DNA of 64,000 nucleotides from Bacteroidota bacterium (GTDB taxonomy: Bacteria > Bacteroidota > Ignavibacteria > UBA10030 > UBA6906). Made by a program: the position numbers and the translations under genes. Numbering within the stretch: the stretch's first letter is position 1; each line of letters opens with the position of its first letter. The stretch is from assembly GCA_019637975.1 (NCBI GenBank), contig JAHBUR010000004.1, forward strand, positions 32,209-96,208, in the 5' to 3' direction. The notes beneath the pieces were generated by a model. The model saw only the letters and a list, made by a program, of their open reading frames with translations, had not been told where the DNA came from and made no database searches. Shown here one piece after another: positions 1 through 19,887 of this stretch.

Positions 1-549
1 TCCGACTTTCTTCGGTACGGCCTTTCCCTTGTCGTTCTGCTCAACGATGTAATCCATTTTTGAACGCATGGTTGCAATGACGTGGAGCTTCGAGCGAATC
101 ATCGCCTCGACGAACGCGTTATGCTTCGGTGTGAGCTTACGCCATGCGGTAAAGCTGTTCATACCGCCATCGGCGAGCTTGCCTTGCGTATCGAGCAAGC
201 CTCCCTCCCCGGCCCACGCGTGCGAGATGCTGTCAAGAATCAGCACGGCATAGTTTCCCTGCTCGGCAGCTTTGATGGCGTTGATGTATTTGTCAATATC
301 GAACGGCGGTTCGATGTTCAACACATCGAAATCGATCCGGTCAGCGTAGAGGACGCTGGAGTTGTTCTCGGTATCGATAAGCGCAAGTCTCCCGCCGTTC
401 GGCGTAAGTCCACCGGCAATCTTGAGTGCAGTCAACGTCTTGCCTGAACCCGACGGACCGGAGAGACCGATGCGGGCTTTCTTGGTGACATACTGTGCCT
501 TCTTGAATTGAAGGATGGAGGGTTTGGGGAATGTGGTTGGGGTGTTCAT
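1..549 (-). CDS. AAA_24/Sak4-like phage-type ATPase; C-terminal part beyond the window start
   Basis: Reverse-strand ORF not in the track because it runs off the edge. ATG at 549..547 preceded by GGAG. Translation begins MNTPTTFPKP... and contains the Walker A GPSGSGKT and a hydrophobic-D (VLILD) Walker B-like segment. Confidence 0.55.
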   Translation of the reverse strand, partial: MNTPTTFPKPSILQFKKAQYVTKKARIGLSGPSGSGKTLTALKIAGGLTPNGGRLALIDTENNSSVLYADRIDFDVLNIEPPFDIDKYINAIKAAEQGNYAVLILDSISHAWAGEGGLLDTQGKLADGGMNSFTAWRKLTPKHNAFVEAMIRSKLHVIATMRSKMDYIVEQNDKGKAVPKKVG

Positions 550-564
550 GGTGGTGCTCCTTTG

Positions 565-598
565 ATTAAGGTTGAGGATTAGGTTAAGGTTGAGTTGC
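565..598 (-). repeat. AACCTT-like hexanucleotide tandem repeat in a 5' leader
   Basis: Plus strand reads ttaaggttgaggattaggttaaggttgag, immediately upstream (minus sense) of the RBS of the AAA ATPase gene. Confidence 0.6.
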
Positions 599-611
599 AG
601 AGTCCAGTTGG

Positions 612-1118
612 TTAGAAGCTTACTTGAAGCGTGACTCCACCTGAAAGAAACTTTGCCGGATAGATTGGTTCGCCGGATTCATCCTTCATGGGATCGGTGA
701 TGCTTTCAAGGAACTTCTTGCGGGCTTTCAGCTGTGCATCGATCTCTGCCTTCTTCGCTTCGAGTTGGGTAACGAGCCTGTCGTTATACTCGAACTTCTT
801 CGGCAACTGCTTGAGTTGTACCCGTGCGCCAAAGATTTCGCAATTGGAATCGTGCACGTCAACGATTGCATGCTCTTTGACCTGTGCGCACGCGATCTCG
901 AGGATTTCAATCACGTTGCGGATGCGGACAAAGGCCTCGAGCGAGGATTGCTCTTCGAGCAGCCGGCTGATCAAGTGTGTCGCATACTCCGTGAACTGCG
1001 GTTTTGGTACAACTCGCCGAAGTATTGCGACCTGGTCGGTTTCGATGAGTTGCGGTCCTGCAACCTCGGCAGTTGCGATATCCTGAAAGAACTCATCGTG
1101 GTGGTTGGTGTTGGGCAT
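612..1118 (-). CDS. hypothetical protein, likely phage-derived
   Basis: 168-aa ORF with a strong RBS (AGGAGG, rc of cctcct at ~1123-1128) upstream of the ATG. It sits in a co-oriented block with the AAA ATPase. No recognisable motif. Confidence 0.5.
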   Translation of the reverse strand: MPNTNHHDEFFQDIATAEVAGPQLIETDQVAILRRVVPKPQFTEYATHLISRLLEEQSSLEAFVRIRNVIEILEIACAQVKEHAIVDVHDSNCEIFGARVQLKQLPKKFEYNDRLVTQLEAKKAEIDAQLKARKKFLESITDPMKDESGEPIYPAKFLSGGVTLQVSF

Positions 1119-1130
1119 GGTGTCCTCCTA

Positions 1131-1170
1131 GGGTTAAGGTTAAGGTTAAGATTGAGGTTTAGGTTTAGTG
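1131..1170 (-). repeat. AACCTT-like hexanucleotide tandem repeat in a 5' leader
   Basis: Plus strand reads agggttaaggttaaggttaagattgaggtttaggtttag, directly upstream of the AGGAGG RBS of the 612..1118 gene. Same motif as 565..598. Confidence 0.6.
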
Positions 1171-1400
1171 TTTGTACACGCAGCTTCTGCGGCGGCGTTG
1201 CGTTGGGCGATTTTTGCATACCGGCGCTTGCGGTCTTCCCGGTATTCCTGCTCGGTGGCAGGGCAGACTTTGTTTTTCGCAATGGAGACAACAGTAGAAT
1301 GGAACGTGACATATTGAATGGTGTCGCCGTTGTCGCGATAGAAGAAGCCGAGCACAGTTTTGCCTGATATGCGCTTGATGGGTTGATAGGGTTTGAACAT
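1146..1400 (-). CDS. small hypothetical protein (~84 aa from the internal ATG)
   Basis: ORF 1146..1496; the internal start MFKPYQPIKR at 1400 is more plausible than the upstream start. Co-oriented with its neighbours. Confidence 0.35.
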   Translation of the reverse strand: MFKPYQPIKRISGKTVLGFFYRDNGDTIQYVTFHSTVVSIAKNKVCPATEQEYREDRKRRYAKIAQRNAAAEAACTNTKPKPQS

Positions 1401-1436
1401 TGTTGCACCTGTTGTTGCTGAGACCGCCGCCGCCGA

Positions 1437-1660
1437 TAAGCGCCCCCGAAAAAGAAAAGGGGAAAAGAAAAAGCGGGGGTTGTGGCACAACGGCAAACGA
1501 AAAAGGCAAGGGCGCGTTTACGACGACCGCCGGAGCGAAGCGCAGGCGGGCGGAGTGCGTTCACTTTACCCTTGCCTTTTTCCTCCTGAGCACTAACTAA
1601 GATGTTTGCCGTTGTATCTTGCGCCGCTTTTTCTGCTTTTTCCCCCTTTTCATTTTTTGC
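1437..1660. repeat. long imperfect A-tract palindrome (nested inverted repeats); candidate origin or regulatory region
   Basis: Left arm gcgcccccgaaaaagaaaaggggaaaagaaaaagcggggg pairs with the rc of right arm gcgccgctttttctgctttttcccccttttc. Inner pairs are acaacggcaaacgaaaaaggcaagggcg with cccttgcctttttcc...tgtttgccgttgta. Confidence 0.55.
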
Positions 1661-2660
1661 TTGGGGGCGATCCATACGGGGAAATTCCAAAGTGGTTGAT
1701 CGTTGATGGTTCAGAGTTGATGGGGTGATGACCGGGGATGGAAGACGGAAAAAGGGGTGACGCTTGAGGGCAGACGTCGGACGTCAGCGTCAAGGGGCTT
1801 GGCGTGACTTTGGTGTGAAACTGATCGTCTATCGAAATATCAATGAGGCGGCGGCCAAAGGCATGCCAAGCCTATAACATGCTGAGGGCCGCAAGTACGC
1901 CGAGCGAAGTGATGAGGGAGGCGTTCTTGCTCATGGCTTCTTGTGGGAAAGGCGGCAGTATGTGACCCGCAGTGAATCGATTCATTTTCAACAACTCACT
2001 CGCGGGCACTTTCTGCCGCCGTGCGGCTGGCCTCGTGCCAGCAACGTTGTGGCGGTTCATTCAGTGCAGTTTGTGTGACGGGAATGAGACGAAACTATGT
2101 TGCAACAGGGTCTTTGGAGAAGCGGCAGGATATTTAGGGTTGAAGCTATATCCTTATAGATGATCTTGAGATGGCAACACGCTGCCGCTGTGCACGGGGA
2201 TATATGCGCACGCACGCGCAAAGACCTTTTTCATGGCTTAGCAATGTTTGCACACTTACTATGTATTATGGAGTAGGCTGTGCATCAATGACTCAGTGGG
2301 CCCCTTCCCGTTGCAGGTAACTTTGTGGCGGCGTGCCATTCTTAACTTCAATGTTTCGGAGCACGGCAAGACGACACAAATTTGCTCCAGAGGAGCTTTG
2401 GGAGAGGATGCTTGGTGCAACCGATGTCGTCGTCTTTTTGTCAGCGAATTGTGACAGTCTATCTGTGGTTGGATTACTATCAATGAGCTCGACGAAGTGT
2501 AGCGGAATACGAAGGCAGGTGTTCTTGTAGAAGGTTTGGGAAGAGGCGGCTTTATCCGTCTTGAGTTTTATGAGCAAACGGGATTGCTCAACTCTGAGTC
2601 GACCAATTCCAATGAGACGGCCCTTGATCTGTGTCAAGCCAAGGTGAGGCAGCAGAATCT

Positions 2661-4109
2661 TTACTTACGTACCTCCTTGTTCTTTGCATTCAAGGCTACG
2701 GAGAGCTTCTCAGCCAGAGTATATCCAGTTTTCGGAATCTTGTGGCGGTCGCGGTGATTTTTGCATGCTCTTGCGTGCAGACGGTAAAACAAACAAGACT
2801 CACCGGTACAAGTGTCATTCGGGCAATAGTCGATAGGCATTTTCTCTAGCCATTCAATTTCGGTTAGAGCGATGCCAAGTAAGTTGTTCATTTGAATCTT
2901 GCTTGGAATAAAATCCTTCGCTTTGGGTGACCCACAAATTAAGAGACTGTCGGAGGGATGAAGAAACCACTTATGCATCATGCCCGGCAACCTTAGTCGT
3001 TGATAATCGGGGGTGGTCTTTTCTTCGATACATTCAGCTATGCGAACTTTTTCAGCCAGGCTCGGCATCGAGAACTTGTTAAGCGGTCCCCTACGGTTTA
3101 ACAAAAGAGAAGTTGCACCGGAGAAACCATCGCGGTAGATAATTAGATCCGCATGCACACGAAATCGTGCTGCTTTGATGACCATCCCATTTGTGGACAC
3201 TACACTAGCGATGCTTACATTCCTGACCTTGTGAACGATTCCTCTATTGTCAAATTCTTCCAAGGCATTTGCCCACTGTTTTTCTCTTTCCCAAATTGCA
3301 TCCAACCAAAAATTAAATGTTCCAGTAATGCGCTCTTGATTGCCTTCTTCGCGAAACATCAGACCAGCAAGCAACGCGGGCAAAGAGACCATTTCATCTA
3401 AGGGATCTGGAGAGAAAGCAATTTCTGGATTCTCAATCAGTCGACGGTGCAATTCACGAATGGTAACCAAGGTTGGTTCTGCACTTCCAACCACTGAACC
3501 TCGGTCAAGCAGATATTTCCCTATCAATTCCTTCAGCAACAATCTGCTGTCTGGAGCATTCTGTGAATCTGTTTTTTCTTTTCTCTCTAAATACAATGTG
3601 ATAACCTCCAATACGTTCATACCCTCATGTAAGAGGCGGTACGAATCGGAACCGTAGAGCAATTGGAGACCACTGAGAATAGTCGGCAGTGTTCCTAAAT
3701 GGTGGACATAATCTCTAGAGCGGATGCTTTGCCCGGTGGTATCCTGCAGGCGTGTATACTGAATTAGACTTCGCCAGGCTGGATCGTCGCTTATGCCAAC
3801 CATCTCCGCTGTGAGATCTGCCGCGCAGCGATCTTGTTTTTCTTTAGTGACTTGATTCTCAACGGGATGCGAGTCCAGCCGCCCGCCACCAACGTCGACT
3901 GCAAGTATGCCTTCTTTTTCCAATTCCTCAGACGACTTTCCTTCAGGGAGCTTTCCGGCAGGGCAGAACGCAATATCTGCCGTTCGCGCACCCGGAAACT
4001 GCGCTTCGCCAAAACGGCGCAGGACAAGTGTGGAGAGCATAGCATCAAGATCCGGGGACTCATGAGTGAGAATACACCTTATGGGAATCGGTCTCATTTG
4101 TTTGCCCAT
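2661..4109 (-). CDS. DHH-superfamily-like phosphoesterase (482 aa) with an uncharacterised C-terminal half
   Basis: N-terminal motifs are consistent with DHH motifs I-III: THESPDLDAMLS (HxxPDxD..S), ILAVDVGGG and RLDSH (degenerate DHH). The start codon abuts the stop of the giant ORF, with 1 nt between them. Confidence 0.45.
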   Translation of the reverse strand: MGKQMRPIPIRCILTHESPDLDAMLSTLVLRRFGEAQFPGARTADIAFCPAGKLPEGKSSEELEKEGILAVDVGGGRLDSHPVENQVTKEKQDRCAADLTAEMVGISDDPAWRSLIQYTRLQDTTGQSIRSRDYVHHLGTLPTILSGLQLLYGSDSYRLLHEGMNVLEVITLYLERKEKTDSQNAPDSRLLLKELIGKYLLDRGSVVGSAEPTLVTIRELHRRLIENPEIAFSPDPLDEMVSLPALLAGLMFREEGNQERITGTFNFWLDAIWEREKQWANALEEFDNRGIVHKVRNVSIASVVSTNGMVIKAARFRVHADLIIYRDGFSGATSLLLNRRGPLNKFSMPSLAEKVRIAECIEEKTTPDYQRLRLPGMMHKWFLHPSDSLLICGSPKAKDFIPSKIQMNNLLGIALTEIEWLEKMPIDYCPNDTCTGESCLFYRLHARACKNHRDRHKIPKTGYTLAEKLSVALNAKNKEVRK

Positions 4110-4110
4110 T

Positions 4111-7100
4111 TCATCTTATCAAGTATTGGTGGACGGATATCCCTGACTTGAGGAATAAATCTCGGCTATTGAGTGTGTCCGGCGGCTCCATGCGACCAGT
4201 GCGATTGTCTAGGAAATTCTGCAAAAGGAGAGTTAGGAATGACGGTGATGACCGCCGAGCCTCTAACAAGTAGCTTAGTGAACCGTAATCTCTTAGCGCG
4301 ACTGCTAGCCCTGTTGAAAAAATGATCGAATTTGAGTCGGATTCACTTTCGGGATGATAAGAATTGCAATATTTCTTTAAGAGGTCGACGAGGTTGTCAA
4401 ACCAGGCTTCCTCACTGGGCCTGCCAGTAGGTCGTTCGTGCAACCGCCCAGCCAGAAAACTCATGCACAGCCTTAGCACTTCGATACGCCGTCGCCAAGC
4501 TCGGTCTTCTTCCACAGATCCGAGATGATAGCCTGCTTCCTCAAGATGTTCTTGGACCTTTTCTTCGTTTTGCGAAACAAAATAGAGACACGCAAGCAGA
4601 TAATGGAGCCGACCGACTTTCAATGTTGGTTTTGTTTTGACTTCACGAATCCAGTTTTCAATCGTATCGACGGTGCTGCCTAATTCTCCTGGGATGTATT
4701 GCTCAAGGGGATTTGTTGCTCTTCCCATTGTAGCAACAGCGTGATTCTCCATATCTTGTTTCCAATCCGGCCAATACGGCTGCAAGAACAATTCGAAGTG
4801 ACTACCAAGGCGTTGGACAACCTCCTCAACAAGTTGAGTATAATCCATATCGGCGCCGCTTCGTCTGGCGGCAATGATGCGCCCGAGACCCGCATTCAGT
4901 GATTCTGGAATTCTCTCGTGTGTGTAGTTGACCATAGCATAGATCACTTTCCAATCTATGGAGTGTTCTTGATGGGATCGGTGAATATCTGCATACTCCT
5001 CAACGGACAAAAAATACTCTATTGCAGCAAGAAGCACCAGTGGATCCTGATCCTCACGATAAAGCTGCGGGTTCATTATGATTCTTGCTGTTCCCGACAG
5101 GAATGACGACCAATCATCCCGTGAAGCTTCCGGGATGACAGCAAACAGATGCAACTGTCGCAAGGGTGCAGCCAAGAAACGCGCTACAGCTGTCGCTGTT
5201 GTGCTATTAATTGGAACAAAGAGTTCTGACAGTTGGCTTCCAAAGGCCAGCCAGTCGTATTCTGAGTGCTTCGATTGTTTGCGACGATCCCAGAGATTTG
5301 TCCAAACCAATTCGGCCCATGCCGGAAAAAATTTACAGCATGTGTCCCAAGCCACTTGTTTACGATGAATCATTGAACTTTGACTGCGTACTGATAAGTG
5401 CCTCTTCTTCCCGATCATGAACTGGCTCAGACGTACCTCATCTCCAGTCTCTAAGGGTTCGTGAAATTCACTCTTGACGTAGTTCATGGCAACCATACCA
5501 TACGATTGCTCGTAACGCACTAATAAACAGTCTGGATGTTTAGAAACAATTTTGGCCACGAAGGTTTCGTTTCGTCCAGCATCGTCAAATGTTGGTACAC
5601 GGCTCAAGAGGATCCTTCCTTCTGAGGGACTCCATTCACGAAGAACGCAGCTAATGGCCATATTCTTCTGCAGCTTGCCTTTTCCGAAATAGCCATAAAT
5701 CAGCTCGTCGTACAGAATGAAAGTGACAAATCCAGGAAATTGTATGAATGCACCTTCTGCACAGGCTCGCTTGACAATTCCAGGTAGTAGAGATGCCACA
5801 CCAAAAGTTTGAACTCTTTCACTCAAATATTGATCGTAGCTTACTTCAATCGTGCGATCAGCGGCAGTGATCAGCACAGGGATTTCAAGGTTCTTCAAGT
5901 TGTCAAGGTTAATGTTGTTTCTCGAGAGACACTTGGCTTCTTGATTTGGCAAGAAGCCTGTCAAAGCGGCGTCTTCTTCGAAAACCACGCGATAACCATT
6001 TTCAAGAATCTCCTCTATTCGCACTCTTGCCAACCTACCAGTTCCCCGAACCGCGTCTTCCTTGACCTCATGCTGCAACCCGACCTCCACCCGAGTGATT
6101 TGAAAGACCCCATGTTCGCTATAGCGCAAGCCTTCATGCGCAACCATCAATCGCCCATGTAAGCGATCCCCGGGCTTAAGCCAAAGAAAGCTGCTGCGTT
6201 GTTCCGCAGGAAGCGCGCTGAGTTGAAGCAAAAGTCGTTCTTCTATCTTCTTATGGTTTGTGTAAAACACAGAGAAATAGTTTCTACTAATTCCCCACTT
6301 TTCGAAAACGAAAGAAGCGTCTTTAATATAGCCCTCACGATTAGGGTGAGGCGGTTGAGCGCTCTGTAAGAAGATCTTCCAGAGCCAGCCATCACGAAGG
6401 AACATTTCAATTTCCAACCGAAAGGAAATATTGTCGAATCTTACGACATGCGCGATGATGCGATCGCCACGGCGCAGATCTTTGATTCTCTGCGGACGGT
6501 CGAAGCGCGATAGCGGAATGCGATAGTTCATTCCTGGGACACGTTCAACAAGGATAGGTTCGTCAGACTTCGCAGTGTCTTGAAGCATCGTGAACACCAG
6601 ACGTTTTTCGTTGGGGTTTTCTAAAAAGAACTGATCCAATTCCCCCACTTCCCGCGGAGTACTTCCGGTCAGAGAAAGCTTGGAGGAATTATCGTGCTTA
6701 ACCAAAATTGCGCTATGCCATTCTCCGACATTAAAATTGAGGGTGCCGGGATGCATAACCGGATGCATCGGGCGAGTCAAGCCGAAGAGTGACAACGATG
6801 AGTTGGAAGTAAGATCAGGGAACTTGAGATTTCCTACAGGTCCGTTTGCGGGTCGAACTCGCCAACCGGTGTTGTTACCTTCAGGAACGAGAAGCTGGAT
6901 CTCAATCTCGTATTTTTGGTGCTTATCACTATCCCAAATGCGGAAAACGAAGGCTTCCTGCTCTTTATCAAAGTGTCCGAAAACTACGGAAAAAATATCC
7001 TGATCGGATACTTTTTCCGTCAAGATCTGAGCATCCTCGAGTGCTAGGAAAGCCTGAACATGCTGCAATTGGATGTGCCTTTTCGCAGCTTCTCCCAAGA

Positions 7101-10100
7101 ACCTAATCCGCCATTTTTCTCTCTCATTTGAGAGATGGCAACGAAAGACATGGTTTCTTAAGCTATTGAGTGTTTCGCTTAGTGAACGAACGGGCAGAGC
7201 TCGAAGGACCAGCTTGTTGTTATCAGAGAACGCAAAACTGAACATTCCGTCAATGAATTTCCAATTGAAGTATGATCGACGTTGACCCGGAGTGATTAGT
7301 ATATCATCGACCGAAACCCTGCATATGACCAGAGTAGCTGTCTCAAAAATATACGAGCGATTGTCCTCTGAAATCCTGATGAGGCATGCTTCGCCCTTGT
7401 CAATACCAAACTCCGCATTGAGCTTTCCGTTGCGATTGAGGTTCTGAGGAATGCCCTGACAGAGACTGAGTTTCACGAGTTTCTTCTCTGTATCGACACC
7501 CATGACACGAAAGCCACGCACGAGATTCCGATTAGCCCGGGATTGATAGTACTGGTAATCGCGTCGTGATACAACATGTGAGATATCTCTATAGGGCACC
7601 AAGAAAGTAATATCGCTATCGTAATTCCAAGACTTAATCCGAAGCCCGTCTTTTCCAGCAGACTGTACTCTCCCCCAGACGTTGAAAAACTCATTCTTCG
7701 TCTTCTCTTTTAGAATCGAGTCTATTCCAGGGACGGTGGTGCTATCAGCAACTGGAACGAGATCTCCATGGAGCTTTGGAATACCGGATGAACAACTCAT
7801 CCAAATTCGCTCGGCTCGGACATCAATCCGCGCCCGCGTTCGATAGTGTGAACCGCCGCCAACTAGTCTTCCGTTCATAGATCGGATCCCTGGAGGCGTG
7901 ACTCTCACCAGCCCGTCTTCTGATATCACAAGTCCTTTCAGTGGCTCTTCTTGTGCAAGGATGCTCCTAATGCCGCCACTTTGGACTTGGAGATTATGCA
8001 CAAGAAGAACGCGGTTCAGCTCGCGACCAGGTTTAAGACTCACCGCATCGCCTGCATAAAAATGAGTACGCCCGAAATCCTCGAAGCATTGACGCGCTAT
8101 CCGCAAGCATATGCCGGGTTTTCGTTCGATCCAAACGTATCGGTCATATCCCTTTTCCTGATAACCAATGTAGATGCCGTTTGCCGGCAGCTTCAGCCGC
8201 TCAACTGACTGTATAGTTTCTTCGGGACTATCGAGAAGTAGAGAAAACTCCATTTCTCCTCTTTTTTCATTTTTCCCAACGTAACGAGCCTCCACGACAG
8301 TATCGCACGGAAAATCCTGAATCGTGATTTTCGGATTGTACGCAAGTTGGTCTTCATTAATTACGAAACTTTCGCGCGTCGTCCAATGCGATAGATTCAA
8401 CCAATTTCTCCAGTCATCTCTAGACGAACCGATGACTTTGAGATGGTACCAATCACCCACTTCGAATTTACGGAATTCATCTATGAGGGGGATAACCAGA
8501 GGGACACTCTCTCGGTAGCCTATGATCTTGGCTCGAAGCTTCAGAACCTCATCAATCTCCCCAAGATGCAACAGCATCTCGGAGTCGACCTTATCCCACT
8601 CTAAGATTGCAGGAACTGGCCGTTCCTCAAATTGAGGCTCGATGATTTCTACTGTTTGTGGTTTATCGGACCAAGGTTTTGAAGGCTGAGCAATAATGGT
8701 GACGCGAGCTTCAAGTTCGAACTTCCCATGCAGATCATAGCGATAAGGTGCTATCCGTCTAAGCTTCAACACACACTCACCCTGCTGCTGCCAAGGGCGA
8801 TTGTCCCTTTGGTTCACTTGAGGCAAGAGCCATTGGGCCTCGAACGTCTCGCCACATTTTGGGGGATAGGCTGTGAGCAGCGGATGATAGTTGAATTCAT
8901 CCTTGTCCACCATTCTCTCCGCGCTAAGCTTACAAAGAGTTCCAGGACGTACAAAATGGTCGGGATAGTCTGATTCAGGTAAGGAAGTATGTACTTCAAA
9001 AAGTAGATCATTCTTGTCGAGATTAACAAAGGTCAGTTTGAAAGGAGCCGTTCCAAAAAACATGGCCAATTTTTCAGCGCCCCAAACAGGTTTGCGCCGC
9101 TTGAAAGAGAAGATAACCTTTGCACCTTCGGCAGGTCGAACAAGGCAAATCTTGATCCGCTCTTGTCGTTCCTCCAGGAGTTTAATTACTTCAAGCGTAT
9201 TCTGCAAATTTGCCCAAGAAACCTCTTCCCTTGAAACCTCGAATGGCAAATGTCCACACAACACTCGAACATTGCCTTCCAGATTGATTGCATCAAGAGC
9301 GACTTCCATTTCGAGGTTATCCCTCACGTTGAGCAAAACTTCTTTTAGCGAAGCTATGAGCGCTCTCTTTGAGAGAATCAGGTCACCCGCCTGTTCGCGA
9401 CCAGCGACCATGAACAAATGAAGTTGGCCTAGATTACCTAGCTTTTCCGTTTGTGTTTCACCGATCTCAGGCTCCGACCAGATCCCTTTGGGATAGCTTG
9501 CGCCTAAGTCGACAATGAACTTCTCGCCAGAGTTCGTTTCGCACAACCGTTCGATGCTTCCCAGCACACAATCCCCAACACAAATTTGTTTGTTGCTTTG
9601 AGGTTCTGTGTTAAGATGTAAGTTCTTGATTTTGTCAGCTATGGCTGAGGGGAAATCGGCTCTATTCGTCACTACACGCCACACATTCCGCAAACCCATG
9701 ACCGGAGATGCAAAAACCACATTCCGATGGTGATGCAAACTTTCTTGAGTGAGTAGTTTAACAGTGCCACCTTCAGCAGTGCCTACCAAGGTTTCCTCGA
9801 AATCAAGCTGGGCTAGGGCACTTGCGAGTCTCGAACTGACTGCCTCGGACTCGCCAGTGCGATCCGATTGCCCTTCTGGGGGAAATGGCAAATGATGTTC
9901 ATTGGCGAATTGGGACGCACGTAGCAAGCTCAGCCACGCGAACTTGGACAGTTCCGCATCTGTAAGCTCTGTTTCGCCACGCAACTCTTCATATAGATAA
10001 TACGCAGCTTCTCCGCTCAGGTGCTGACGCACATATTTGTTGAGTCCCCCATAGAGAAATCCGTAATGAGAGTTGGTACGCTCATCTTGGAGCATGCACC

Positions 10101-12132
10101 GCAACAAATCTAATAAATTTTGGATCTCCCGAACCGGCAACTTCATGAGTACTGGTACGCTTTCGATCCAGCGATATTCCTTGATGTCACTAATCAGATC
10201 GAGGGGGGGGTGCCTATCTTCCAGAGCAAAAGGACAATTTTGATAAGGCATCTTGGGGTGGTTTGTCGCTAACTCAAGCCAAAGCGTCAGTTTTCGCGCG
10301 CGCACCGTCTCTTCATCAAATGCCTTCTTCAAAACCATCGCGTCCTTGATATGGCGGAGTTGCGAATCCTCATTCCTGAGTACAATCAATTCGTCGTCAG
10401 TCGGAATAAACCGGCTCAGATTCTCAGAGAGATCAAGCTTTTCTATCAGGAACGAGAATTGCACGAACCGCTTGATCATCGTTGCTCGATCCGGTGCTTG
10501 ACGTAATGCGTCTCGTAAAATGCATCTGAGTTCTTCAATTAATTCTGGCATTAAAACTTGCCGCTCGTCCAAAAGTTCGTCTTCTGGAGTGAGAAGCATA
10601 TTCCATAGATGCAAAAAATCCTCCATTTTGAAGCCAGACACGGAACTCTTGTAGCATGCTATGCTTTTTCGTAATATTGGATTGCGATTCCACACTTCGC
10701 CCTTTCCAATGTAGAGCGTCACCAAGTTGTTGGCGACATACCTGCTGTTGTACCTAACGAGATCATTCCACTTCTTCGGGTTGAGACTGCGGCATTTCCC
10801 CATGACTTGCATAACATGGTTTTCGACAGCTTTTCGCGAGCGTCCCAAGGTCAAGAGATGCTGAACGATTTCTTGACACTGCTCAGATTTGAACTGATCG
10901 AAGTTACGCACTAAGGCAAAGTGCCACATCTGCAATGTGTAGCTGACGGATTCGCATTGTAACCCCGCATCGAAAAACTTCCTTAGCTCAAACAACGAAT
11001 CGCAAGCACCGATTTCTCCAAGTGCTTTGATCGCGTTCTGGCGGTTGGCGTCCTTACATTGGTCAGGCTTGTTTCTGTAGTCATTCTGCTGCCGAATGAC
11101 ACTCTCCAGCGCATGGATCAGTCTGATCCTGTTTTCCCGAGTCTTTGCAAATGCCTTCTCAAGATTCTCACCATCAGCAACGGACCTTATCTTCCATTTC
11201 TCGAGCAAAGCCTCCCATTGTTCCGACGACCAATAGCCATCATGACATCTTTTGGATTGTTCGACCAAGCCGTCGCTCATTCTTTCATCATGGAGCATAT
11301 TGCCGATGATGGAGCGGGCAGATTCATACAAGGGTGTCGCCCATAACAGCCTAGCGCTACGTATTCCAGATTCAATCACCTGATAGTAAGCGTGAGGATC
11401 GTTACTGTACTCGAAATCTTTGTACGGAGGCGGTTGGATTAGCTCCAGCGCGACGTCAAAAGCCGAAGTCGTTTCGTCCTTTGGCAGACCCGTTCTTCCG
11501 AAGAAATCCAGAATTCTCCGAAGAACGAAAGGGTCTAAGTCCATTTTGAGAAGACTGTGTAATTGTTCGCCCAACTTAGCATTAGGGAATTCGCTCTGGA
11601 AATCTTTTTCGATGAAATCTACAAAGCGCGATCTGCTCGTATCTCCAACATCGGCCGGTAAGCTGAAAATCCCAGACTCGGTCCCGAGCCATAGGAGATC
11701 AAGGCCGTGCCGGTGATTCGGCTGAAAATAGCTGGGTGCCTCCCGGGAGCTTATCCCTTTCCTAGGTGGTTCTCCTTGCTCCAGCAGATCTAGTCCCTTG
11801 CGTATAATTTTTTTCAAGTTCTGCGGTAGAGGGTTGGCATAGAAAGTTTCGAGATCGACACCGACATATTCCCAACGTTCCGGAAATCTCTCACGCATAA
11901 TTTGGGCAGCCCATTTCCTTATTTGCTCCTCATGAACAAATGACCCAGTGACAAGCCCTAAAAAGTATTCGCGTTCATCGGGGTTTGTCATCTGAGCCAA
12001 GCAATCTTCCATCTTCTGCATCCCGCGCAGTTGCACTGCAGACCAGGGGGAAGTCAAATACTCTTTGACGGACTTGATTTTATCAATTAGGCTAAGAGAC
12101 TCGAATCTCGCTAGGCGCTTGTTCTTTGCCAT
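4111..12132 (-). CDS. giant 2673-aa protein of unknown function; alpha-helical N-terminal third, then repeated beta-rich (S1/OB- or SH3-like) modules
   Basis: Uninterrupted 8-kb ORF. No Walker, helicase or obvious nuclease motifs. Recurrent G-D-R-[IL]...V...F modules, for example GDRIIAHVVRFDNISFRLEIEM and GDRLHGRLMVAHEGLRYSEHGVFQITRV. Overlaps the upstream STAND gene by 22 nt. Confidence 0.85.
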   Translation of the reverse strand: MAKNKRLARFESLSLIDKIKSVKEYLTSPWSAVQLRGMQKMEDCLAQMTNPDEREYFLGLVTGSFVHEEQIRKWAAQIMRERFPERWEYVGVDLETFYANPLPQNLKKIIRKGLDLLEQGEPPRKGISSREAPSYFQPNHRHGLDLLWLGTESGIFSLPADVGDTSRSRFVDFIEKDFQSEFPNAKLGEQLHSLLKMDLDPFVLRRILDFFGRTGLPKDETTSAFDVALELIQPPPYKDFEYSNDPHAYYQVIESGIRSARLLWATPLYESARSIIGNMLHDERMSDGLVEQSKRCHDGYWSSEQWEALLEKWKIRSVADGENLEKAFAKTRENRIRLIHALESVIRQQNDYRNKPDQCKDANRQNAIKALGEIGACDSLFELRKFFDAGLQCESVSYTLQMWHFALVRNFDQFKSEQCQEIVQHLLTLGRSRKAVENHVMQVMGKCRSLNPKKWNDLVRYNSRYVANNLVTLYIGKGEVWNRNPILRKSIACYKSSVSGFKMEDFLHLWNMLLTPEDELLDERQVLMPELIEELRCILRDALRQAPDRATMIKRFVQFSFLIEKLDLSENLSRFIPTDDELIVLRNEDSQLRHIKDAMVLKKAFDEETVRARKLTLWLELATNHPKMPYQNCPFALEDRHPPLDLISDIKEYRWIESVPVLMKLPVREIQNLLDLLRCMLQDERTNSHYGFLYGGLNKYVRQHLSGEAAYYLYEELRGETELTDAELSKFAWLSLLRASQFANEHHLPFPPEGQSDRTGESEAVSSRLASALAQLDFEETLVGTAEGGTVKLLTQESLHHHRNVVFASPVMGLRNVWRVVTNRADFPSAIADKIKNLHLNTEPQSNKQICVGDCVLGSIERLCETNSGEKFIVDLGASYPKGIWSEPEIGETQTEKLGNLGQLHLFMVAGREQAGDLILSKRALIASLKEVLLNVRDNLEMEVALDAINLEGNVRVLCGHLPFEVSREEVSWANLQNTLEVIKLLEERQERIKICLVRPAEGAKVIFSFKRRKPVWGAEKLAMFFGTAPFKLTFVNLDKNDLLFEVHTSLPESDYPDHFVRPGTLCKLSAERMVDKDEFNYHPLLTAYPPKCGETFEAQWLLPQVNQRDNRPWQQQGECVLKLRRIAPYRYDLHGKFELEARVTIIAQPSKPWSDKPQTVEIIEPQFEERPVPAILEWDKVDSEMLLHLGEIDEVLKLRAKIIGYRESVPLVIPLIDEFRKFEVGDWYHLKVIGSSRDDWRNWLNLSHWTTRESFVINEDQLAYNPKITIQDFPCDTVVEARYVGKNEKRGEMEFSLLLDSPEETIQSVERLKLPANGIYIGYQEKGYDRYVWIERKPGICLRIARQCFEDFGRTHFYAGDAVSLKPGRELNRVLLVHNLQVQSGGIRSILAQEEPLKGLVISEDGLVRVTPPGIRSMNGRLVGGGSHYRTRARIDVRAERIWMSCSSGIPKLHGDLVPVADSTTVPGIDSILKEKTKNEFFNVWGRVQSAGKDGLRIKSWNYDSDITFLVPYRDISHVVSRRDYQYYQSRANRNLVRGFRVMGVDTEKKLVKLSLCQGIPQNLNRNGKLNAEFGIDKGEACLIRISEDNRSYIFETATLVICRVSVDDILITPGQRRSYFNWKFIDGMFSFAFSDNNKLVLRALPVRSLSETLNSLRNHVFRCHLSNEREKWRIRFLGEAAKRHIQLQHVQAFLALEDAQILTEKVSDQDIFSVVFGHFDKEQEAFVFRIWDSDKHQKYEIEIQLLVPEGNNTGWRVRPANGPVGNLKFPDLTSNSSLSLFGLTRPMHPVMHPGTLNFNVGEWHSAILVKHDNSSKLSLTGSTPREVGELDQFFLENPNEKRLVFTMLQDTAKSDEPILVERVPGMNYRIPLSRFDRPQRIKDLRRGDRIIAHVVRFDNISFRLEIEMFLRDGWLWKIFLQSAQPPHPNREGYIKDASFVFEKWGISRNYFSVFYTNHKKIEERLLLQLSALPAEQRSSFLWLKPGDRLHGRLMVAHEGLRYSEHGVFQITRVEVGLQHEVKEDAVRGTGRLARVRIEEILENGYRVVFEEDAALTGFLPNQEAKCLSRNNINLDNLKNLEIPVLITAADRTIEVSYDQYLSERVQTFGVASLLPGIVKRACAEGAFIQFPGFVTFILYDELIYGYFGKGKLQKNMAISCVLREWSPSEGRILLSRVPTFDDAGRNETFVAKIVSKHPDCLLVRYEQSYGMVAMNYVKSEFHEPLETGDEVRLSQFMIGKKRHLSVRSQSSMIHRKQVAWDTCCKFFPAWAELVWTNLWDRRKQSKHSEYDWLAFGSQLSELFVPINSTTATAVARFLAAPLRQLHLFAVIPEASRDDWSSFLSGTARIIMNPQLYREDQDPLVLLAAIEYFLSVEEYADIHRSHQEHSIDWKVIYAMVNYTHERIPESLNAGLGRIIAARRSGADMDYTQLVEEVVQRLGSHFELFLQPYWPDWKQDMENHAVATMGRATNPLEQYIPGELGSTVDTIENWIREVKTKPTLKVGRLHYLLACLYFVSQNEEKVQEHLEEAGYHLGSVEEDRAWRRRIEVLRLCMSFLAGRLHERPTGRPSEEAWFDNLVDLLKKYCNSYHPESESDSNSIIFSTGLAVALRDYGSLSYLLEARRSSPSFLTLLLQNFLDNRTGRMEPPDTLNSRDLFLKSGISVHQYLIR

Positions 12133-15068
12133 GTGTTAACCTCTGCATTCTGCGTATGTTGTAACTTATCCATGAATGATCTGAATGATGTGCGTTGTTG
12201 CTCTGTAGGCAGCTTCGTCAGAATCCTCTCAAGTACCTTGATGTGAGCGGAAACTCGCGCGACAGCTTTAGCTTCCTCAAGGTTAATTCTTGTACGAGAC
12301 TCAAGGAAAAAGTTTGCCACTTTGTCCCTGTGCGTTAGCGAAACTTCCGGCATCTTTGCAAGGCTTTTCAAAAGTTGGATGGTCGAAAGTCTGCTGAGTA
12401 TGGCTAATTCTTTCTCATTTTCCCCTCCTTGGTGATAGCGTGTCAACAACGCAATAGCCGCACGTAAGCGCAGCAGAGGAACTTTTCCAGTAGCGACAAT
12501 GTCTTCCAGTTTCGAAATTTCACCACAGGCAATAAGATGCTGGAGTATTCTATCCTTTACAAGTGGAGCTACTTCCTTATCGTAGAAGGTCGTAAGCCAA
12601 CTAGCTGCTTCAGTAAGACTCGTGGATTGCATTAAGTCAAGTGCAACCTCTTTCAAATTGTTGTCCCGACGATCTTCCCCCAGTTCGCACAGTTTTTGAA
12701 TGAAGGTCAGTGATGCAAATTGGCTCCAGCCCCGCAAAGCATAAAGTAGAGCAATTGTCCTCTGCGGATCTCGCACGTAAAGTCTCTCGGGCGCCTCCAG
12801 AATATCATTCATCCAAGTTTGAATGATGTCCCGTTGATTAGGTTCCAGACAAAAGAAGGAAAACGCGGAAAGAATTCGATTGATAGTGGCCGTGTCAAGA
12901 GAATTTCGATATTCGAAGCACGCCTTGACGGCTTGCTCTGCTGCATTTTCGATCGGATATTGTTCGATGATGCTTAACCACTCCTCCCAAAGTCGTGGCG
13001 AATTCCCATAGAGATCGGAACGGAGTTTTTCGGCGCCGTTAGAATGAAAGAGTTCACGCAATGATTGATGACGTCGTATCAAGTGATCAGAAAGCAGGTC
13101 GCACAAAGCAGGCGGTATCTCCTGATTCCCAAGAGCGAGATCGTCAAGCGTCATTTCACGTTCGCGTGTACTTTCTTCCCGTAACTCAGGATAGGTCTTC
13201 ATCATATGGATGAGTTGGTCCCATGTCTGCTGATTCGCGTTGGATTGGGCTGAAACTCTCCATAAGAACTTGATCGCTATGCTGGCTTGATCTGAAGAGC
13301 GGATGTTTCTGAAGCGTTCGAAGCATTTTGAGACGACCAGATCCCAATCACGGCTATCCGATAGCCTTTCCAAAAAGAGTATTGCCAGCGACCAGAAATT
13401 GGGATTCTCCGACAACGCAGCGACCCCACCCGATATTTGGGCACGATTACCAGACCAAATGGTCAAGGCTGCCTCCACCACCCAGTAATTGAGCATGAAC
13501 GGAAAGGAAATGGTGACCGTTGAGAAATCTCTTTGCAAAATGTCCTTCAAGACAACAGGGCCCAATTCTGGGAACGGGAATTCCCTGCGTTCGGCCTCAA
13601 AGCTCTCTGCGTCGATTTTTCCGTTCCAATCCTTCCATGTTTCCGGAGGGGAATTCAACCACTGTCTGGCGAAGGGTCTGATTATCAGCAAATCGACTTC
13701 TTTTATCTTTTCGTTACGTCGAAGACCAGATGGCAACACTTGTTTGAGAAAGCCATGGCTGAGTTCACGCAAGTAGTCAATATCGGACCCACCTTCAGCA
13801 GCACTTTGGTAATAGTTCAGCAACAGGTTCAAACCGAACAAACTATCCTTAGGTAGTGGAGATGAAGGCGACACCCAGAAATTATACAAGCTACCCCACT
13901 TTTCTCTAAGGAGACTGCGCTGAGCACGCAAATATTGCCACACTTCCGGAATCGATGGGGGACATATCGACATTTCCCGCCAGTTCTTGAGTTCGCCTCC
14001 GTGTTCTCTAAAATCTTTGCTGCGCAGACTGAGCCAAACGCGATTTGCCCGTCCCTCACGTTCATTTTCATCACGCAACCGTCTTAGCCAAGCCGGCAAT
14101 AGCCTGTATTTTTCTTCGGCAGGATCAATCTCATCCAAATACAACCACAGGCTACCCTTATTCCAGCAATACTGGAGAGTTTCAAACTCTGGCCACAATG
14201 CCGATCTAAGAATCGTGAATGGAGGTCCATCGTTCGTGTCAAAGTCCTTGATCGCAGCAAAGCTCACTGGCAAGGGCCAATGTGTCGGATTTTGCTGTAG
14301 GTACAAAAGTTCCCGTACTACATGAATCATGAGTGACGTTTTCCCACTGCCGACGTCGCCAGTAATAATTGCATAAGGACTGTCGCATGCCACTTCCAAG
14401 GGTGACAGCCTCTGCTCGGTGAGATGCAGAGGACAATAAGGCTGCCCTGGAGTCTCCAGGATCGGATCCTGTTCCCATGCTCTCGGCCCTCGGTTCCAGT
14501 ACTTCCTTATTGCGTCTCGAATTTCGCCACTGGTTGGATCTTGCCGTTGTTTATTATCTAATTTGCCTCCGTATTCATGCGCAAATATGTCCTTGATTCG
14601 AGAGAATTTGGGATAGTCTGTGTTATAGAGATTGACTATTTTGTGCAATAGATCCTTGGCCGAGAGAATATGCTTTTTAGGATCGAACCATTGGTATTTG
14701 CTCTTTTTCATCCTTGGGCGATCAAGTTTGAGAATAAGAAACCGAAGTCCGTTGGTGAAAGTTTTGTCATGCTGATACTTGACAAAAGCCTCTAGCGTGT
14801 CTCTTATTTTTGTTCCATCAGTTCTCGATGTTATTTGAAAAGCAACCTTACCTTGTGTATTATCGCCCAAGTCAATAGCCGGAAAATTTGCTTGTTTCTG
14901 GTTGAGGTTTTCCAGTCTCAGATCAAAGATCGTATTTAAGACATCTTTGCATAGATCTTCAGAAAGTTTGTTGATATCGAAAAAGTTTAAGGCATTCTGC
15001 GAATCAATTTCGCTGAGCCATTCCATCACATATTTCGATATGGTTTGTATTTCGGTTTGCTTATTCAT
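12111..15068 (-). CDS. STAND/NACHT-type NTPase (985 aa) with an uncharacterised ~230-aa N-terminal domain and a C-terminal helical-repeat region
   Basis: Walker A ITGDVGSGKTSLM at about residue 240; Walker B LWLYLDEIDP; a long C-terminal alpha-repeat (HEAT/TPR-like) region. This is the architecture of antiviral STAND (Avs-like) proteins. Confidence 0.7.
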   Translation of the reverse strand: MNKQTEIQTISKYVMEWLSEIDSQNALNFFDINKLSEDLCKDVLNTIFDLRLENLNQKQANFPAIDLGDNTQGKVAFQITSRTDGTKIRDTLEAFVKYQHDKTFTNGLRFLILKLDRPRMKKSKYQWFDPKKHILSAKDLLHKIVNLYNTDYPKFSRIKDIFAHEYGGKLDNKQRQDPTSGEIRDAIRKYWNRGPRAWEQDPILETPGQPYCPLHLTEQRLSPLEVACDSPYAIITGDVGSGKTSLMIHVVRELLYLQQNPTHWPLPVSFAAIKDFDTNDGPPFTILRSALWPEFETLQYCWNKGSLWLYLDEIDPAEEKYRLLPAWLRRLRDENEREGRANRVWLSLRSKDFREHGGELKNWREMSICPPSIPEVWQYLRAQRSLLREKWGSLYNFWVSPSSPLPKDSLFGLNLLLNYYQSAAEGGSDIDYLRELSHGFLKQVLPSGLRRNEKIKEVDLLIIRPFARQWLNSPPETWKDWNGKIDAESFEAERREFPFPELGPVVLKDILQRDFSTVTISFPFMLNYWVVEAALTIWSGNRAQISGGVAALSENPNFWSLAILFLERLSDSRDWDLVVSKCFERFRNIRSSDQASIAIKFLWRVSAQSNANQQTWDQLIHMMKTYPELREESTREREMTLDDLALGNQEIPPALCDLLSDHLIRRHQSLRELFHSNGAEKLRSDLYGNSPRLWEEWLSIIEQYPIENAAEQAVKACFEYRNSLDTATINRILSAFSFFCLEPNQRDIIQTWMNDILEAPERLYVRDPQRTIALLYALRGWSQFASLTFIQKLCELGEDRRDNNLKEVALDLMQSTSLTEAASWLTTFYDKEVAPLVKDRILQHLIACGEISKLEDIVATGKVPLLRLRAAIALLTRYHQGGENEKELAILSRLSTIQLLKSLAKMPEVSLTHRDKVANFFLESRTRINLEEAKAVARVSAHIKVLERILTKLPTEQQRTSFRSFMDKLQHTQNAEVNTWQRTSA

Positions 15069-15259
15069 GCAAATGACAGATTTGGAGCGAACTCAATAGT
15101 TGGTCATTGTGTCAACCAATCGTTTGACGAGTCATCTTCTGACTGGCCCCATTGGATCATCCGTTTGTCCACATGCCTCTCCCACTCACCAGATTTCAAC
15201 GATACTGTTCTCCAAAAAAAACGGCAACCCATTTTTGCGATCGGCCAGTTATTCACGCT

Positions 15260-16501
15260 TCAAAGTTCAGCGCTGACTGACTTTCCCAACTCTAAGATGG
15301 CGTGTGCCAAAACAAATCTCCCTGCTTGAGTATGTCCGCGCGTTGACATTATTTCGGCAAGCCCGAGATGCGCCGACGCGACAGAAACGCGCAAGCGATA
15401 TTCCCAGTTATCCCAATCTCCTTCTCTTTGCTCTTCAATCTTGTCTAATGTGTACTGCTCGACCCTTTTTCTTCTGAGCTCCGCAGCCTTGGGAATATCA
15501 CTAAGATGAATATCCAGGACCCACCTGCTTTTTCTGGATGGCGGGATCCATCTGCTGTGGCAGGACTTGGGATTACGCGCGACCCATCCGACAGGTTGCA
15601 TCCAATGTAACAGTTTTCCAAAATCATAGATTGGGTCGGACATTCCGATAAGAGGATTTGGATCTATCAGGAAGCATGAGAATCCATGACCGCGTTTGCG
15701 GAACAGGATATTCCCCAAGTGGGGATCCCCGTGCACAAGATTCATTCTCAGTTTGGGAAGATCCGCCTGTAATCGTGCCTTGACAGTCTTAAGTGTATTG
15801 TTCAGTGGAGGCACTTTCTTACCATTCACATAACCAGGCTCAGACATGATTGAAGAAAGCGCTTCGTCTGCCTTTAATATTGCACGCAGTTTAGAGTCAA
15901 TACGTTTGGTGTAAGGATCAACGCTGGTGCCTATCCGGGACTTAATTCTGACAGTGGTCTTGTGAACATTCTTGATGGCGCTAATGGCCTTGTCTACTAG
16001 ACGGTTCAAAACAGCTACCTCCGTTGCTTCATTGTAGAGGTACTTGGAAAATGACTTGAACTTTCTCATTTGTTCCATCAATAAAACAAATCGAACATCA
16101 TCTAACACATCAATGTGCAGCACGTCGGGGAATGTCCTTGGATATTGGCTGTTGACCAACTCTATGAGAGCCTTATGCAATTTCAATTCATCAGTCCCGA
16201 GTTTTACTACCGTATGCACATCAGTTCGCACCGTTCCAACAAAGTCGGCTTTGAATCCTTCGCCGAGTTGCTCTATCTTTCCTATTCTCACGCAGCTTCG
16301 CATGAATTGTTCGGAGAATCCTAATTGTAACACCCGCCTGACTATCGGAACAAAGTCTATTGGGTTGTGTTGAAAATCAGGGGCTTGGATTGAAGATGAC
16401 AGGTTTTGGAAGCCACGAAGTTTTCTGAGGGCTATTTTGTTGTTGAGCGAAGTGAGGTTTTTTTCAGGTGCGGTCAAGAAGCATTCCCCTAAGTGAGCCA
16501 C
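15260..16501 (-). CDS. APH/choline-kinase-fold phosphotransferase (413 aa)
   Basis: Brenner catalytic motif LVHGDPHLGNILF (HGDxxxxN) followed by FLIDPNP (IDxx metal-binding motif), as in aminoglycoside phosphotransferase-like kinases. Confidence 0.6.
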   Translation of the reverse strand: MAHLGECFLTAPEKNLTSLNNKIALRKLRGFQNLSSSIQAPDFQHNPIDFVPIVRRVLQLGFSEQFMRSCVRIGKIEQLGEGFKADFVGTVRTDVHTVVKLGTDELKLHKALIELVNSQYPRTFPDVLHIDVLDDVRFVLLMEQMRKFKSFSKYLYNEATEVAVLNRLVDKAISAIKNVHKTTVRIKSRIGTSVDPYTKRIDSKLRAILKADEALSSIMSEPGYVNGKKVPPLNNTLKTVKARLQADLPKLRMNLVHGDPHLGNILFRKRGHGFSCFLIDPNPLIGMSDPIYDFGKLLHWMQPVGWVARNPKSCHSRWIPPSRKSRWVLDIHLSDIPKAAELRRKRVEQYTLDKIEEQREGDWDNWEYRLRVSVASAHLGLAEIMSTRGHTQAGRFVLAHAILELGKSVSAEL

Positions 16502-17872: not shown

Positions 17873-18704
17873 GTGGAAGAGATTGTGGAGGCACTTCACG
17901 TATCCGAACGACGAGCGTGTCGCGTGTTAGAGCAGCCGCGAACAACACAACGTCATCAGGCGTCACGCCGAAGCGATGAGGAACCGTTGCGGAAACGGAT
18001 TGTTGCCTTGGCGTGTCTGTACGGACGCTATGGGTATCGGCGAGTAACGGTGTTACTGAGGGACGAAGGCTGGCGAGTGAATCACAAGCGCGTTGAACGC
18101 CTATGGCGCCAGGAAGGCTTAAAAGTGCCGCAACGACAAGCCCAAACGGAGACGGTTGTGGTTCAATGATGGGTCATGCATACGGTTACGTCCGTTGTAT
18201 CGGAACCACGTGTGGAGCTACGATTTTGTTGCAGATCGTACGAGTGATGGCAAGCCGATACGGATATTGAACATTCTAGATGAGTATTCACGCGAGTGTT
18301 TGAAGATTCGCATCGACAGACAGATGAAAGCAGTAGATGTGATTTATGAATTGTCGGAACTGTTTGTTGAACGCGGAGTACCGGATTACCTCCGCTCTGA
18401 TAACGGGTCGGAATTTGCAGCGGCGATAGTCCGTGATTGGCTGAAACGACTCGGCGTCAAGACACTCTTTATCGAACCAGGGAGTCCATGGGAGAACGGC
18501 TACATCGAATCATTCAACGGAAAAATGAGAGATGAATTATTGAATGGAGAAATCTCTGATACTATTCTGGAGGCACGGGTGATCACAGAACGATGGAGGA
18601 AGGCATACAACACGGTTCGACCACACAGTTCATTGGGATACCGTCCACCGGCGCCAGAAGTACACCAATATCTTAGCTTGCCAGTGGCTGAGCAAATTAA
18701 CTAA
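17873..18704 (+). pseudogene. IS3-family transposase OrfB (DDE integrase core) disrupted by a frameshift near 18156-18169
   Basis: Two frames, 17873..18169 and 18156..18704, together encode a typical OrfB (YRNHVWSYDFV...DNGSEF...PWENGYIESFNGKMRDE). The expected ...QRQAKRRRLWFNDGS junction is broken. Confidence 0.7.
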
Positions 18705-19521: not shown

Positions 19522-19634
19522 GTTGTTGACTCCCAAGGTAATATGAGACTTTCGACGTGAGGGGGATTATCGCAATCATATGTTTGCAGTTTTCACCGAA
19601 TTCTTTCCCTTGATTAGCAGGTTCTCTTCAAACG

Positions 19635-19880: not shown

Positions 19881-19887
19881 GTACGCG

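Follow-up and report, generated by a model that had tools for sequence, protein, structure and literature searches.

A run of four genes on the minus strand of a Bacteroidota metagenome-assembled genome raises the question of whether they encode a defence or conflict system that has escaped description, and of which among the four belong to it. The genes lie in a 64,000-nt stretch (assembly GCA_019637975.1, contig JAHBUR010000004.1, positions 32,209 to 96,208 of the forward strand), hereafter the window. An initial annotation of this DNA had described them as a four-gene operon built around a STAND NTPase. The four open reading frames (ORFs) are indeed present, all on the minus strand, and the 22-nt overlap reported between the STAND gene and the giant gene was confirmed:

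15260-16501, minus: APH-fold kinase gene, a neighbour outside the conserved module (413-aa ORF, GTG start)
12111-15068, minus: gene 1, effector-NTPase protein (985-aa ORF; MBX2990095.1, named 'SMEK domain-containing protein' by NCBI)
4111-12132, minus: gene 2, giant orphan protein (2673-aa ORF; MBX2990094.1, locus tag KF749_02885)
2661-4109, minus: gene 3, DHH/DHHA1-fold phosphoesterase with a C-terminal Cys-rich knuckle and a basic tail (482 aa in the longest ORF)

The best explanation for the genes at 12111-15068, 4111-12132 and 2661-4109 is that together they constitute a defence or conflict module which is both horizontally mobile and very rare, and we lean towards the reading that places the pair of NTPase and giant protein at its core. 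The three-gene module is real, very rare and apparently undescribed, and it is best classed as a variant of STAND-based immunity. The proposal of a candidate undescribed defence or conflict system around a STAND-type NTPase has held: five immune-type effectors are found on the NTPase, defence genes are among the neighbours, and only the SMEK domain is recognised by PADLOC.

Conservation of the module in other lineages

Seven further lineages of the module were found, all of them from metagenomes. They were established by reading the contigs that carry homologues of the giant protein, and the Pfam effector assignments were re-run for four of them. The lineages are the following:

L001 (with its close relative L060): PNP_UDP_1-NTPase, giant and DHH
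L006: PNP_UDP_1-NTPase, giant and DHH
L002: Trypsin_2-NTPase, giant and DHH
L003-5: CHAT-NTPase, giant and DHH
L012/13: TIR-NTPase, giant (2807 aa) and DHH
L014: truncated giant and DHH
L058/59: TIR-NTPase and giant, followed by Flp-pilin/TadE-like genes, with no DHH

In these lineages the giant protein is ~2,650–2,800 aa long, and the DHH-like protein (~478 aa) is present in six of the seven. An orthologous NTPase core precedes every giant homologue for which the upstream flank is on the contig (L001, L002, L003-5, L006, L012 and L058/59), with spacers that range from -22 to +177 nt; the contigs of L014 and L060 end before the NTPase position, so that they are outside this count. Residues ~170-969 of gene 1, which comprise the core, share 29-52% identity with the gene preceding the giant in L001, L002, L003, L006 and L058, and the N-termini are unrelated. 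The effector heads carried by this conserved core are SMEK in the window and PNP_UDP_1, Trypsin_2, CHAT and TIR_2 (the latter twice) elsewhere, the effector/core junction being a fixed alignment point across lineages. With five Pfam effector types on an orthologous core, the protein has the tripartite layout of effector, NTPase and sensor with a swappable N-terminus, and exchange of the N-terminal effector is a hallmark of an Avs/NLR-like immune switch.

Divergence of the three module proteins is congruent. Identity to the window for the DHH-like protein, the giant and the NTPase core, in this order, is 66, 55 and 50% in L001, 56, 43 and 39% in L002, 55, 40 and 33% in L003, and 50, 31 and 25% in L012. 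The conserved unit is the NTPase together with the giant, nearly always accompanied by the DHH-like protein; the kinase is a neighbour, because it has no homologue in the related loci and the genes upstream of the NTPase vary. From the four-gene operon that had been proposed, three genes thus remain as a conserved unit, and the kinase, 191 nt away, falls outside it. The same applies to the co-occurrence of the four genes elsewhere, which was seen for NTPase and giant, usually with DHH, and in none of the seven lineages for the kinase. Nor does the earlier view hold in which the STAND protein is the sensor and the giant a mere addition, since the giant and the STAND core are a strictly co-occurring pair and it is the DHH-like gene that is missing in one lineage.

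The giant protein has four homologues among 5.8 billion clustered proteins; a profile search gave the same 5 proteins and missed the L012 giant. When a profile of giant residues 1-1060 was compared with 1.84 billion representatives, nine proteins were obtained, all of them family members or fragments. A scan of the 185,579 GTDB species representatives found no further family member, a scan of JGI metagenomes recovered only the already known locus, and no match for either the giant or the NTPase core was obtained in IMG/VR, phage and plasmid collections.

With respect to the gene boundaries, the 1-nt spacing first given between the giant gene and the DHH-like gene is correct for the longest ORF of gene 3. 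As all gene 3 homologues begin at residue 5 of the 482-aa ORF (MRPIPI), the true start is probably at 4097, which would leave a spacer of 13 nt, compared with 11-17 nt in related loci. In the NCBI annotation of gene 3 (459 aa, P0006) the start is placed after the invariant HxxPDxD motif, so that a conserved motif is truncated. The GC content of the module is 0.471, against 0.506 for the rest of the window; that of the block from 2 to 16 kb is 46-48%, against about 51% elsewhere in the window. A 114-aa ORF located downstream of the module (2293-2637) shows no conservation in the related loci and was treated as spurious.

Domains of the three proteins

Gene 1 can be divided into three regions:

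14559-15068, minus: predicted SMEK/Mrr-like PD-(D/E)xK nuclease effector domain, aa 1-170 (Pfam, NCBIfam, PADLOC and PDB matches)
13899-14531, minus: P-loop NTPase core, aa ~180-390, with Walker A TGDVGSGKT, Walker B LWLYLDEID, a sensor-1-like WLSLR and PxxPExWxYL
12114-13898, minus: C-terminal conserved region of ~600 aa, presumed to consist of helical repeats and to be the interface with the giant

The N-terminus is predicted to be a SMEK/Mrr-like nuclease domain, with family matches above threshold and a match to a solved member. Residues 1-170 match SMEK_N both of Pfam (E 2e-33, 115.6 bits, cut-off 27) and of NCBIfam (E 2e-24, 85.3 bits, cut-off 30), and they match PADLOC Aga_REase as well (E 1.6e-34). 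In the PDB, residues 2-166 match 26bh_D (E 8e-22), the Mrr domain of the Mrr-APAZ partner of a prokaryotic Argonaute (pAgo) from Kordia jejudonensis, and the core motif NFPAIDL...VAFQITS is common to both. SMEK has been described as a nuclease effector of short pAgo systems (PMC10810196). This N-terminal SMEK/REase domain is the sole part of the module matched by PADLOC models; the giant, the DHH-like protein and the kinase match none.

The P-loop NTPase is recognised by its Walker A and Walker B motifs, which are invariant or near-invariant in an alignment of five orthologues; the GSGKT sequence to which the initial annotation pointed is present and conserved. Inspection of the alignment by eye also reveals a NR(V/I)WLxLR strand ~30 residues after Walker B, in which R349 is invariant, and the PxxPExWxYL motif with an invariant P374. 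Curated STAND models score below threshold and cover the P-loop region only (NACHT 17-20 bits, cut-off 26.7; nSTAND3 18-23 bits, cut-off 27.2), and the match to Pfam AAA_16 is likewise sub-threshold. Because of these sub-threshold Pfam matches, and because the PDB offers no relative, gene 1 is called STAND-type on its motifs and architecture and not by a family model. Its assignment to the Avs type, as first proposed, was not sustained: no Avs model matches the protein, and NACHT and nSTAND3 stay under their cut-offs. The C-terminal ~600 aa are conserved over their full length in all lineages, and no family match was obtained for them in Pfam or in the PDB.

In L058, from the one lineage without DHH, Walker B of the NTPase (376-3306) is degenerate (LWLYFDNV) and the sensor-1-like Arg is missing (RIWLNAK); this protein may hydrolyse NTP differently.

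The giant protein as a whole has no match in Pfam, NCBIfam, PADLOC or PHROG, and neither do five segments of it at E<=10. The earlier statement that it carries no recognisable motif is therefore valid for family libraries, and incomplete in that S1-type OB folds are predicted by structural modelling. Conservation is even across all 2673 residues, with no hypervariable patch. An AlphaFold2 model of residues 1061-2260, built from five input sequences, has a mean predicted local distance difference test (pLDDT) score of 39 and is beta-rich throughout; the block at about 2030-2105 reaches 64-80. Two independent searches with this model return almost only S1-type OB-fold proteins. With Foldseek, the matches are to bS1 (E 2e-9 over 683 columns) and also to SP_0946, eIF2alpha and Spt6. 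The predicted S1-like units of the giant protein are these:

5395-6054, minus: three tandem S1-like OB-fold units, aa 2027-2103, 2108-2182 and 2185-2246, chosen by eye from the aligned giants
7456-7695, minus: candidate further S1-like unit, aa 1480-1559, the best hhalign local match to the full giant alignment (P 4e-4)
9355-9576, minus: candidate further S1-like unit, aa 853-926, a weak hhalign match (P 9e-4) in which the pattern GDxVxGxIxR...VDLG...G is visible

A hidden Markov model of the three tandem units recovers all three and no further copies in the giant, and it is not independent evidence because it was built from those units. Comparison of the three units with the N-terminal half of the repeats of E. 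coli S1 gave an hhalign probability of 78%, which counts as a lead only. The candidate at aa 1480-1559 sits in a beta-rich, low-confidence part of the model, and a further weak hhalign match of the S1-repeat profile is located at aa 1853-1900. Taken together, the model and the profiles suggest that the giant contains at least one S1-like OB fold, probably three, and possibly five or more. Comparison of windows of the giant with the whole protein by hhalign yielded one weak pair of internal repeats only (1283-1373 with 1834-1901), Chou-Fasman profiling was uninformative, and a PDB profile search with the C-terminal 410 aa gave nothing significant.

The most conserved stretches of the giant, invariant in five aligned sequences, are FQPNHRHGLDLLxLG (aa 136-156, ~11665-11727) and DxDPFVLRRIxDFFG (aa 198-212, ~11497-11541). 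No counterpart of them is known, and they might be of functional importance or form an interface. In L006 (=L011), the giant gene (4370-12424) is split into ORFs of 1957 and 710 aa; as tblastn nevertheless yields one continuous high-scoring segment pair, an in-frame stop is indicated, due either to a pseudogene or to a sequencing error.

Gene 3 had been called DHH-like, and structure comparison bears this out: it points to a two-domain fold of DHH plus DHHA1. No DHH model of Pfam or NCBIfam matches the protein, and no sequence match was found in the PDB with either the single sequence or a profile. Its motif III reads xHH, the Asp of DHH being missing. The candidate metal-site residues HxxPD16xD18, D68xGGGRxD75xH77P, D119 and H132-H133 are invariant or near-invariant, as positions in the alignment of homologues and not on the model. 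PggH is among the structural matches.

Homologues of gene 3 number 25 in the protein index and occupy 42 loci in GTDB species representatives (Bacteroidota, Planctomycetota, Rickettsiales, Myxococcota and others), and a homologue of the giant or of the NTPase was found at none of those 42 loci. The distant relatives that were read in their context are solo genes in ordinary metabolic neighbourhoods. In a neighbour-joining tree, six giant-linked enzymes form one clade, and the L012 enzyme is adjacent, grouped with the solo gene P0012. Our reading of this tree is that the module would have recruited one branch of a family of free-standing DHH-like enzymes. Across lineages, the presence of DHH does not track the type of effector.

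In the stretch 5954-14880 of L007, the gene P0012, which among the solo genes is the nearest to the giant-linked clade, is flanked by a ThsB-like TIR gene on one side and, on the other, by a gene for an 884-aa protein with a weak CHAT match. This locus hints at a second defence-type association of the DHH-like family.

Proposed mechanism and alternative explanations

In the mechanism that we propose, gene 1 would be both switch and executioner, its N-terminal domain providing the output. In the window, activation of the protein, which would probably involve oligomerisation if Avs/NLR proteins are taken as a guide, would lead the SMEK/Mrr domain to cleave DNA. The giant would be the constant, obligate partner and the input, and would either bind single-stranded RNA or DNA through its OB array or represent a guarded scaffold that is hit by a phage factor. 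Since several S1-type OB folds are predicted in it, its most likely role is that of a platform for binding either single-stranded nucleic acid or a phage factor whose usual targets are S1-like proteins of the host. The conserved C-terminal region of gene 1 would read the state of the giant. The DHH-like enzyme would be a usual, dispensable accessory. By analogy with NrN, a DHH phosphodiesterase that is a required accessory in a type III CRISPR-CorA system (PMC10600005), it would likely trim or clear short oligonucleotides or nucleotide products, which would prevent self-triggering and reset the sensor; as its presence does not track effector type, the substrate is expected to be linked to what is constant in the system.

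A more specific form of this mechanism is put forward tentatively. It would be a new class of NLR-like immunity with two components, in which the 300-kDa giant, with its array of S1-type OB folds, either provides the dedicated platform for sensing or is guarded as a decoy of the S1/RNA machinery of the host, the STAND protein is a modular executioner, and the DHH-like enzyme edits or clears the nucleic-acid ligand. If true, prokaryotes would have a counterpart of the sensor/guardee NLR pairs of plants, and for the first time a STAND system would be triggered by way of a separate, giant partner that binds RNA. Sensing would then be indirect or mediated by nucleic acid, akin to guard-guardee logic, and a function would be given to an 8-kb orphan gene family. 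The DHH-like enzyme would be the second DHH phosphoesterase, after NrN, to be recruited into defence. Five exchangeable effectors on one conserved core are also attractive for studying the exchange of outputs.

Several observations weigh against a defence module centred on the NTPase-giant pair. The module is known here from its genes alone, and only about eight lineages are known, so that the co-occurrence statistics are small; L058/59 has no DHH beside the giant gene. STAND membership rests on motifs plus Pfam matches under the gathering score, and a PDB search with the NTPase family profile found no sequence relative. Neither Pfam S1 (E<=10) nor a PDB profile search gave a match for the S1 region of the giant, and with a mean pLDDT of 39 no more than one to three of the units can be assigned to S1 with confidence. 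About 2,000 giant residues, among them the N-terminal ~850 and the C-terminal ~410, are without structural assignment. Profile-profile comparison of the NTPase and giant families by hhalign revealed no shared adaptor domain (probability 0.2%), a test that adaptors too divergent for hhalign would escape. The distant DHH-like relatives, being solo genes in non-defence contexts, further indicate that the enzyme family is not intrinsically immune.

The lack of a detected adaptor domain is also what favours an explanation by two independent systems that merely share a locus, namely an Avs-like STAND receptor acting as a single protein and, apart from it, a giant/DHH pair, and most characterised bacterial STAND defences are indeed single proteins (bioRxiv 10.64898/2026.01.04.697583). 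We consider it improbable: NTPase and giant are never apart in the loci with flank available, they are tightly coupled, including the 22-nt overlap in the window, they diverge congruently, and the giant has no relatives outside these loci. The same strict pairing, together with the congruent divergence of the giant and the C-terminal region of the NTPase, is compatible with a guard-guardee arrangement. The giant would in this case imitate a host target, for example ribosomal protein S1, as a decoy or scaffold, and the NTPase would monitor its integrity or modification and fire upon binding, cleavage or modification by a phage factor. Some phages recruit host S1. The predicted S1-type folds and the uniform conservation of the giant, with no hypervariable patch, fit such a role. 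A decoy of 2,673 aa would nevertheless be costly, the giant has no sequence similarity to genuine bS1, its contact with the NTPase is only presumed, and the DHH-like enzyme is left without an explained role; guarding of this kind is accordingly rated as rather unlikely.

RNA metabolism typically involves S1 folds and DHH enzymes, and the distant DHH-like relatives reside in ordinary metabolic neighbourhoods. Both facts would suit a rare housekeeping or developmental RNA-processing machine (an S1 array plus a DHH nanoRNase or RecJ-like exonuclease) regulated by the NTPase and unrelated to immunity. Exchangeable TIR, CHAT, trypsin, PNP and Mrr-nuclease heads are, however, foreign to housekeeping RNA enzymes, and the extreme rarity of the module, including its absence from the GTDB species representatives, its island context and its atypical GC make such a machine quite improbable. 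Very improbable, finally, is an operon of four genes in which the APH kinase is integral and phosphorylates, for instance, the sensor or a phage target. The identity of the kinase as given at first is correct: Pfam APH is matched at 36.6 bits (cut-off 23.2, E 5e-9) and the HGD loop is visible in the sequence. Its gene lies on the same strand, 191 nt upstream of gene 1 with no predicted terminator in the gap, and its GC content of 0.463 is near that of the module. Against its being integral, tblastn found no homologue in any of the 60 loci compared (best E 0.39 in the related loci), the genes that precede the NTPase vary between loci and are unrelated, and PADLOC did not match the kinase; no plasmid match and no informative PDB match were obtained for it either. 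For the family, the four-gene operon is largely refuted, and the kinase was rejected as a module component, since none of the seven other lineages has it, even where 3.6-10 kb of sequence before the NTPase gene is available.

Known systems and genomic neighbourhood

For the preferred reading, in which the NTPase-giant pair is the core of a defence module, the closest comparison is with Avs1-7 and bNACHT proteins. They have in common with gene 1 an N-terminal effector, a P-loop NTPase with Walker A and Walker B, in gene 1 followed by a sensor-1-like Arg, and a long C-terminal region, as well as a location in defence islands and a repertoire of effectors (nuclease, TIR, protease, nucleoside phosphorylase) that take turns on one conserved core. 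In contrast to them, the module is matched by no PADLOC Avs model, NACHT and nSTAND3 being sub-threshold, and it always encodes an 8-kb orphan partner, usually with DHH. Characterised STAND/Avs receptors are single polypeptides that bind phage proteins directly; an obligate giant partner with RNA-binding folds would add a new architecture to prokaryotic immunity.

The NTP-dependent multi-component conflict systems described by Kaur, Burroughs, Iyer & Aravind in 2020 (PMC7159879) resemble the module in that an NTPase switch is joined by effectors that diversify (TIR, caspase-like/CHAT, trypsin, PNPase, REase-fold nucleases) and by additional large components, and S1-like OB-fold RNA-binding domains are among the domains catalogued there. 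SMEK, DHH and the giant partner are unmentioned in that work. The module differs in having no vWA, MoxR, VMAP or GAP1 components (there is no vWA or MoxR Pfam match), and no EAD/Death-like shared adaptor was detected in it. With the short pAgo of Kordia jejudonensis, associated with SMEK/Mrr-APAZ, the effector domain family is shared; the module has neither APAZ nor Argonaute, and its nuclease is fused to the NTPase. NrN, of the type III-B CRISPR-CorA system (PMC10600005), has PggH among its closest structural matches, as does gene 3. The gene 3 protein (478 aa) is larger than NrN and distant from it, with a helical insertion, a Cys-rich C-terminal knuckle and no Pfam DHH match, and the module includes no cyclase or other known signal-generating enzyme. 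Multi-S1 proteins include bS1 and Rrp5. Compared with bS1, the giant has no sequence-level similarity and is 5 times longer with about 2,000 residues unassigned; it is no ribosomal protein, and its gene belongs to an island.

A 2026 survey of 589 STAND clades (bioRxiv 10.64898/2026.01.04.697583) contains no mention of DHH, SMEK, operon, co-encoded or two-gene, and the one 'partner' in it is host EF-Tu. Literature searches for the present gene combination found no description.

The module adjoins known defence genes in the window, in L002 and in L003. Directly upstream of the Trypsin-NTPase module of L002, at 1154-3979 on the minus strand, a QatC homologue (PADLOC E 1e-61) is next to a protein with a FokI cleavage domain. 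The neighbours in L003 are a SIR2 protein, an integrase and a TIR/FGE-sulfatase protein. Within the window, the following elements belong to the surroundings:

17873-18704, plus: fragment of an insertion sequence (IS) with an rve integrase, flanking the island (upstream ORF 17873-18169, integrase ORF 18156-18704)
30064-31767, minus: NsnB/AriA-type ATPase
34561-40209: type I restriction-modification (R-M) system

The IS integrase matches Pfam rve_3 (E 2e-28) and rve (E 9e-19), so that the IS and R-M context initially reported for this island was found again. Two other elements of that context were not. No prophage remnants were recognised, as a PHROG search of ten ORFs between 18.8 and 34.5 kb gave no match, and the cluster termed Septu-like contains an ATPase that fits PADLOC NsnB (Menshen; 4e-44) far better than PtuA (2e-8). 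The PDC-M55A and AriA models also score far above PtuA for this protein, which has a DUF3696 C-terminus; its neighbours at 29135-30109 and 32559-34553 had no PADLOC or Pfam match. Diversity-generating retroelement-type repeats, island-flanking repeats and tRNA genes as integration sites were searched for, and none was found.

Over about 10 kb (18856-29138), the ORFs have no Pfam or PHROG match except for a DUF2846 protein and a 784-aa FG-GAP-repeat protein, and this region is not demonstrably prophage. Directly beside hsdR of the type I R-M system, the minus-strand gene at 40637-41614 encodes a protein of 325 aa whose N-terminal domain is RtcR-like (E 6e-9). The plus-strand gene at 53521-55185, well outside the island and among housekeeping-type genes, may be a separate immune gene, as its product of 554 aa carries TIR_2 (E 4e-11) at the C-terminus.

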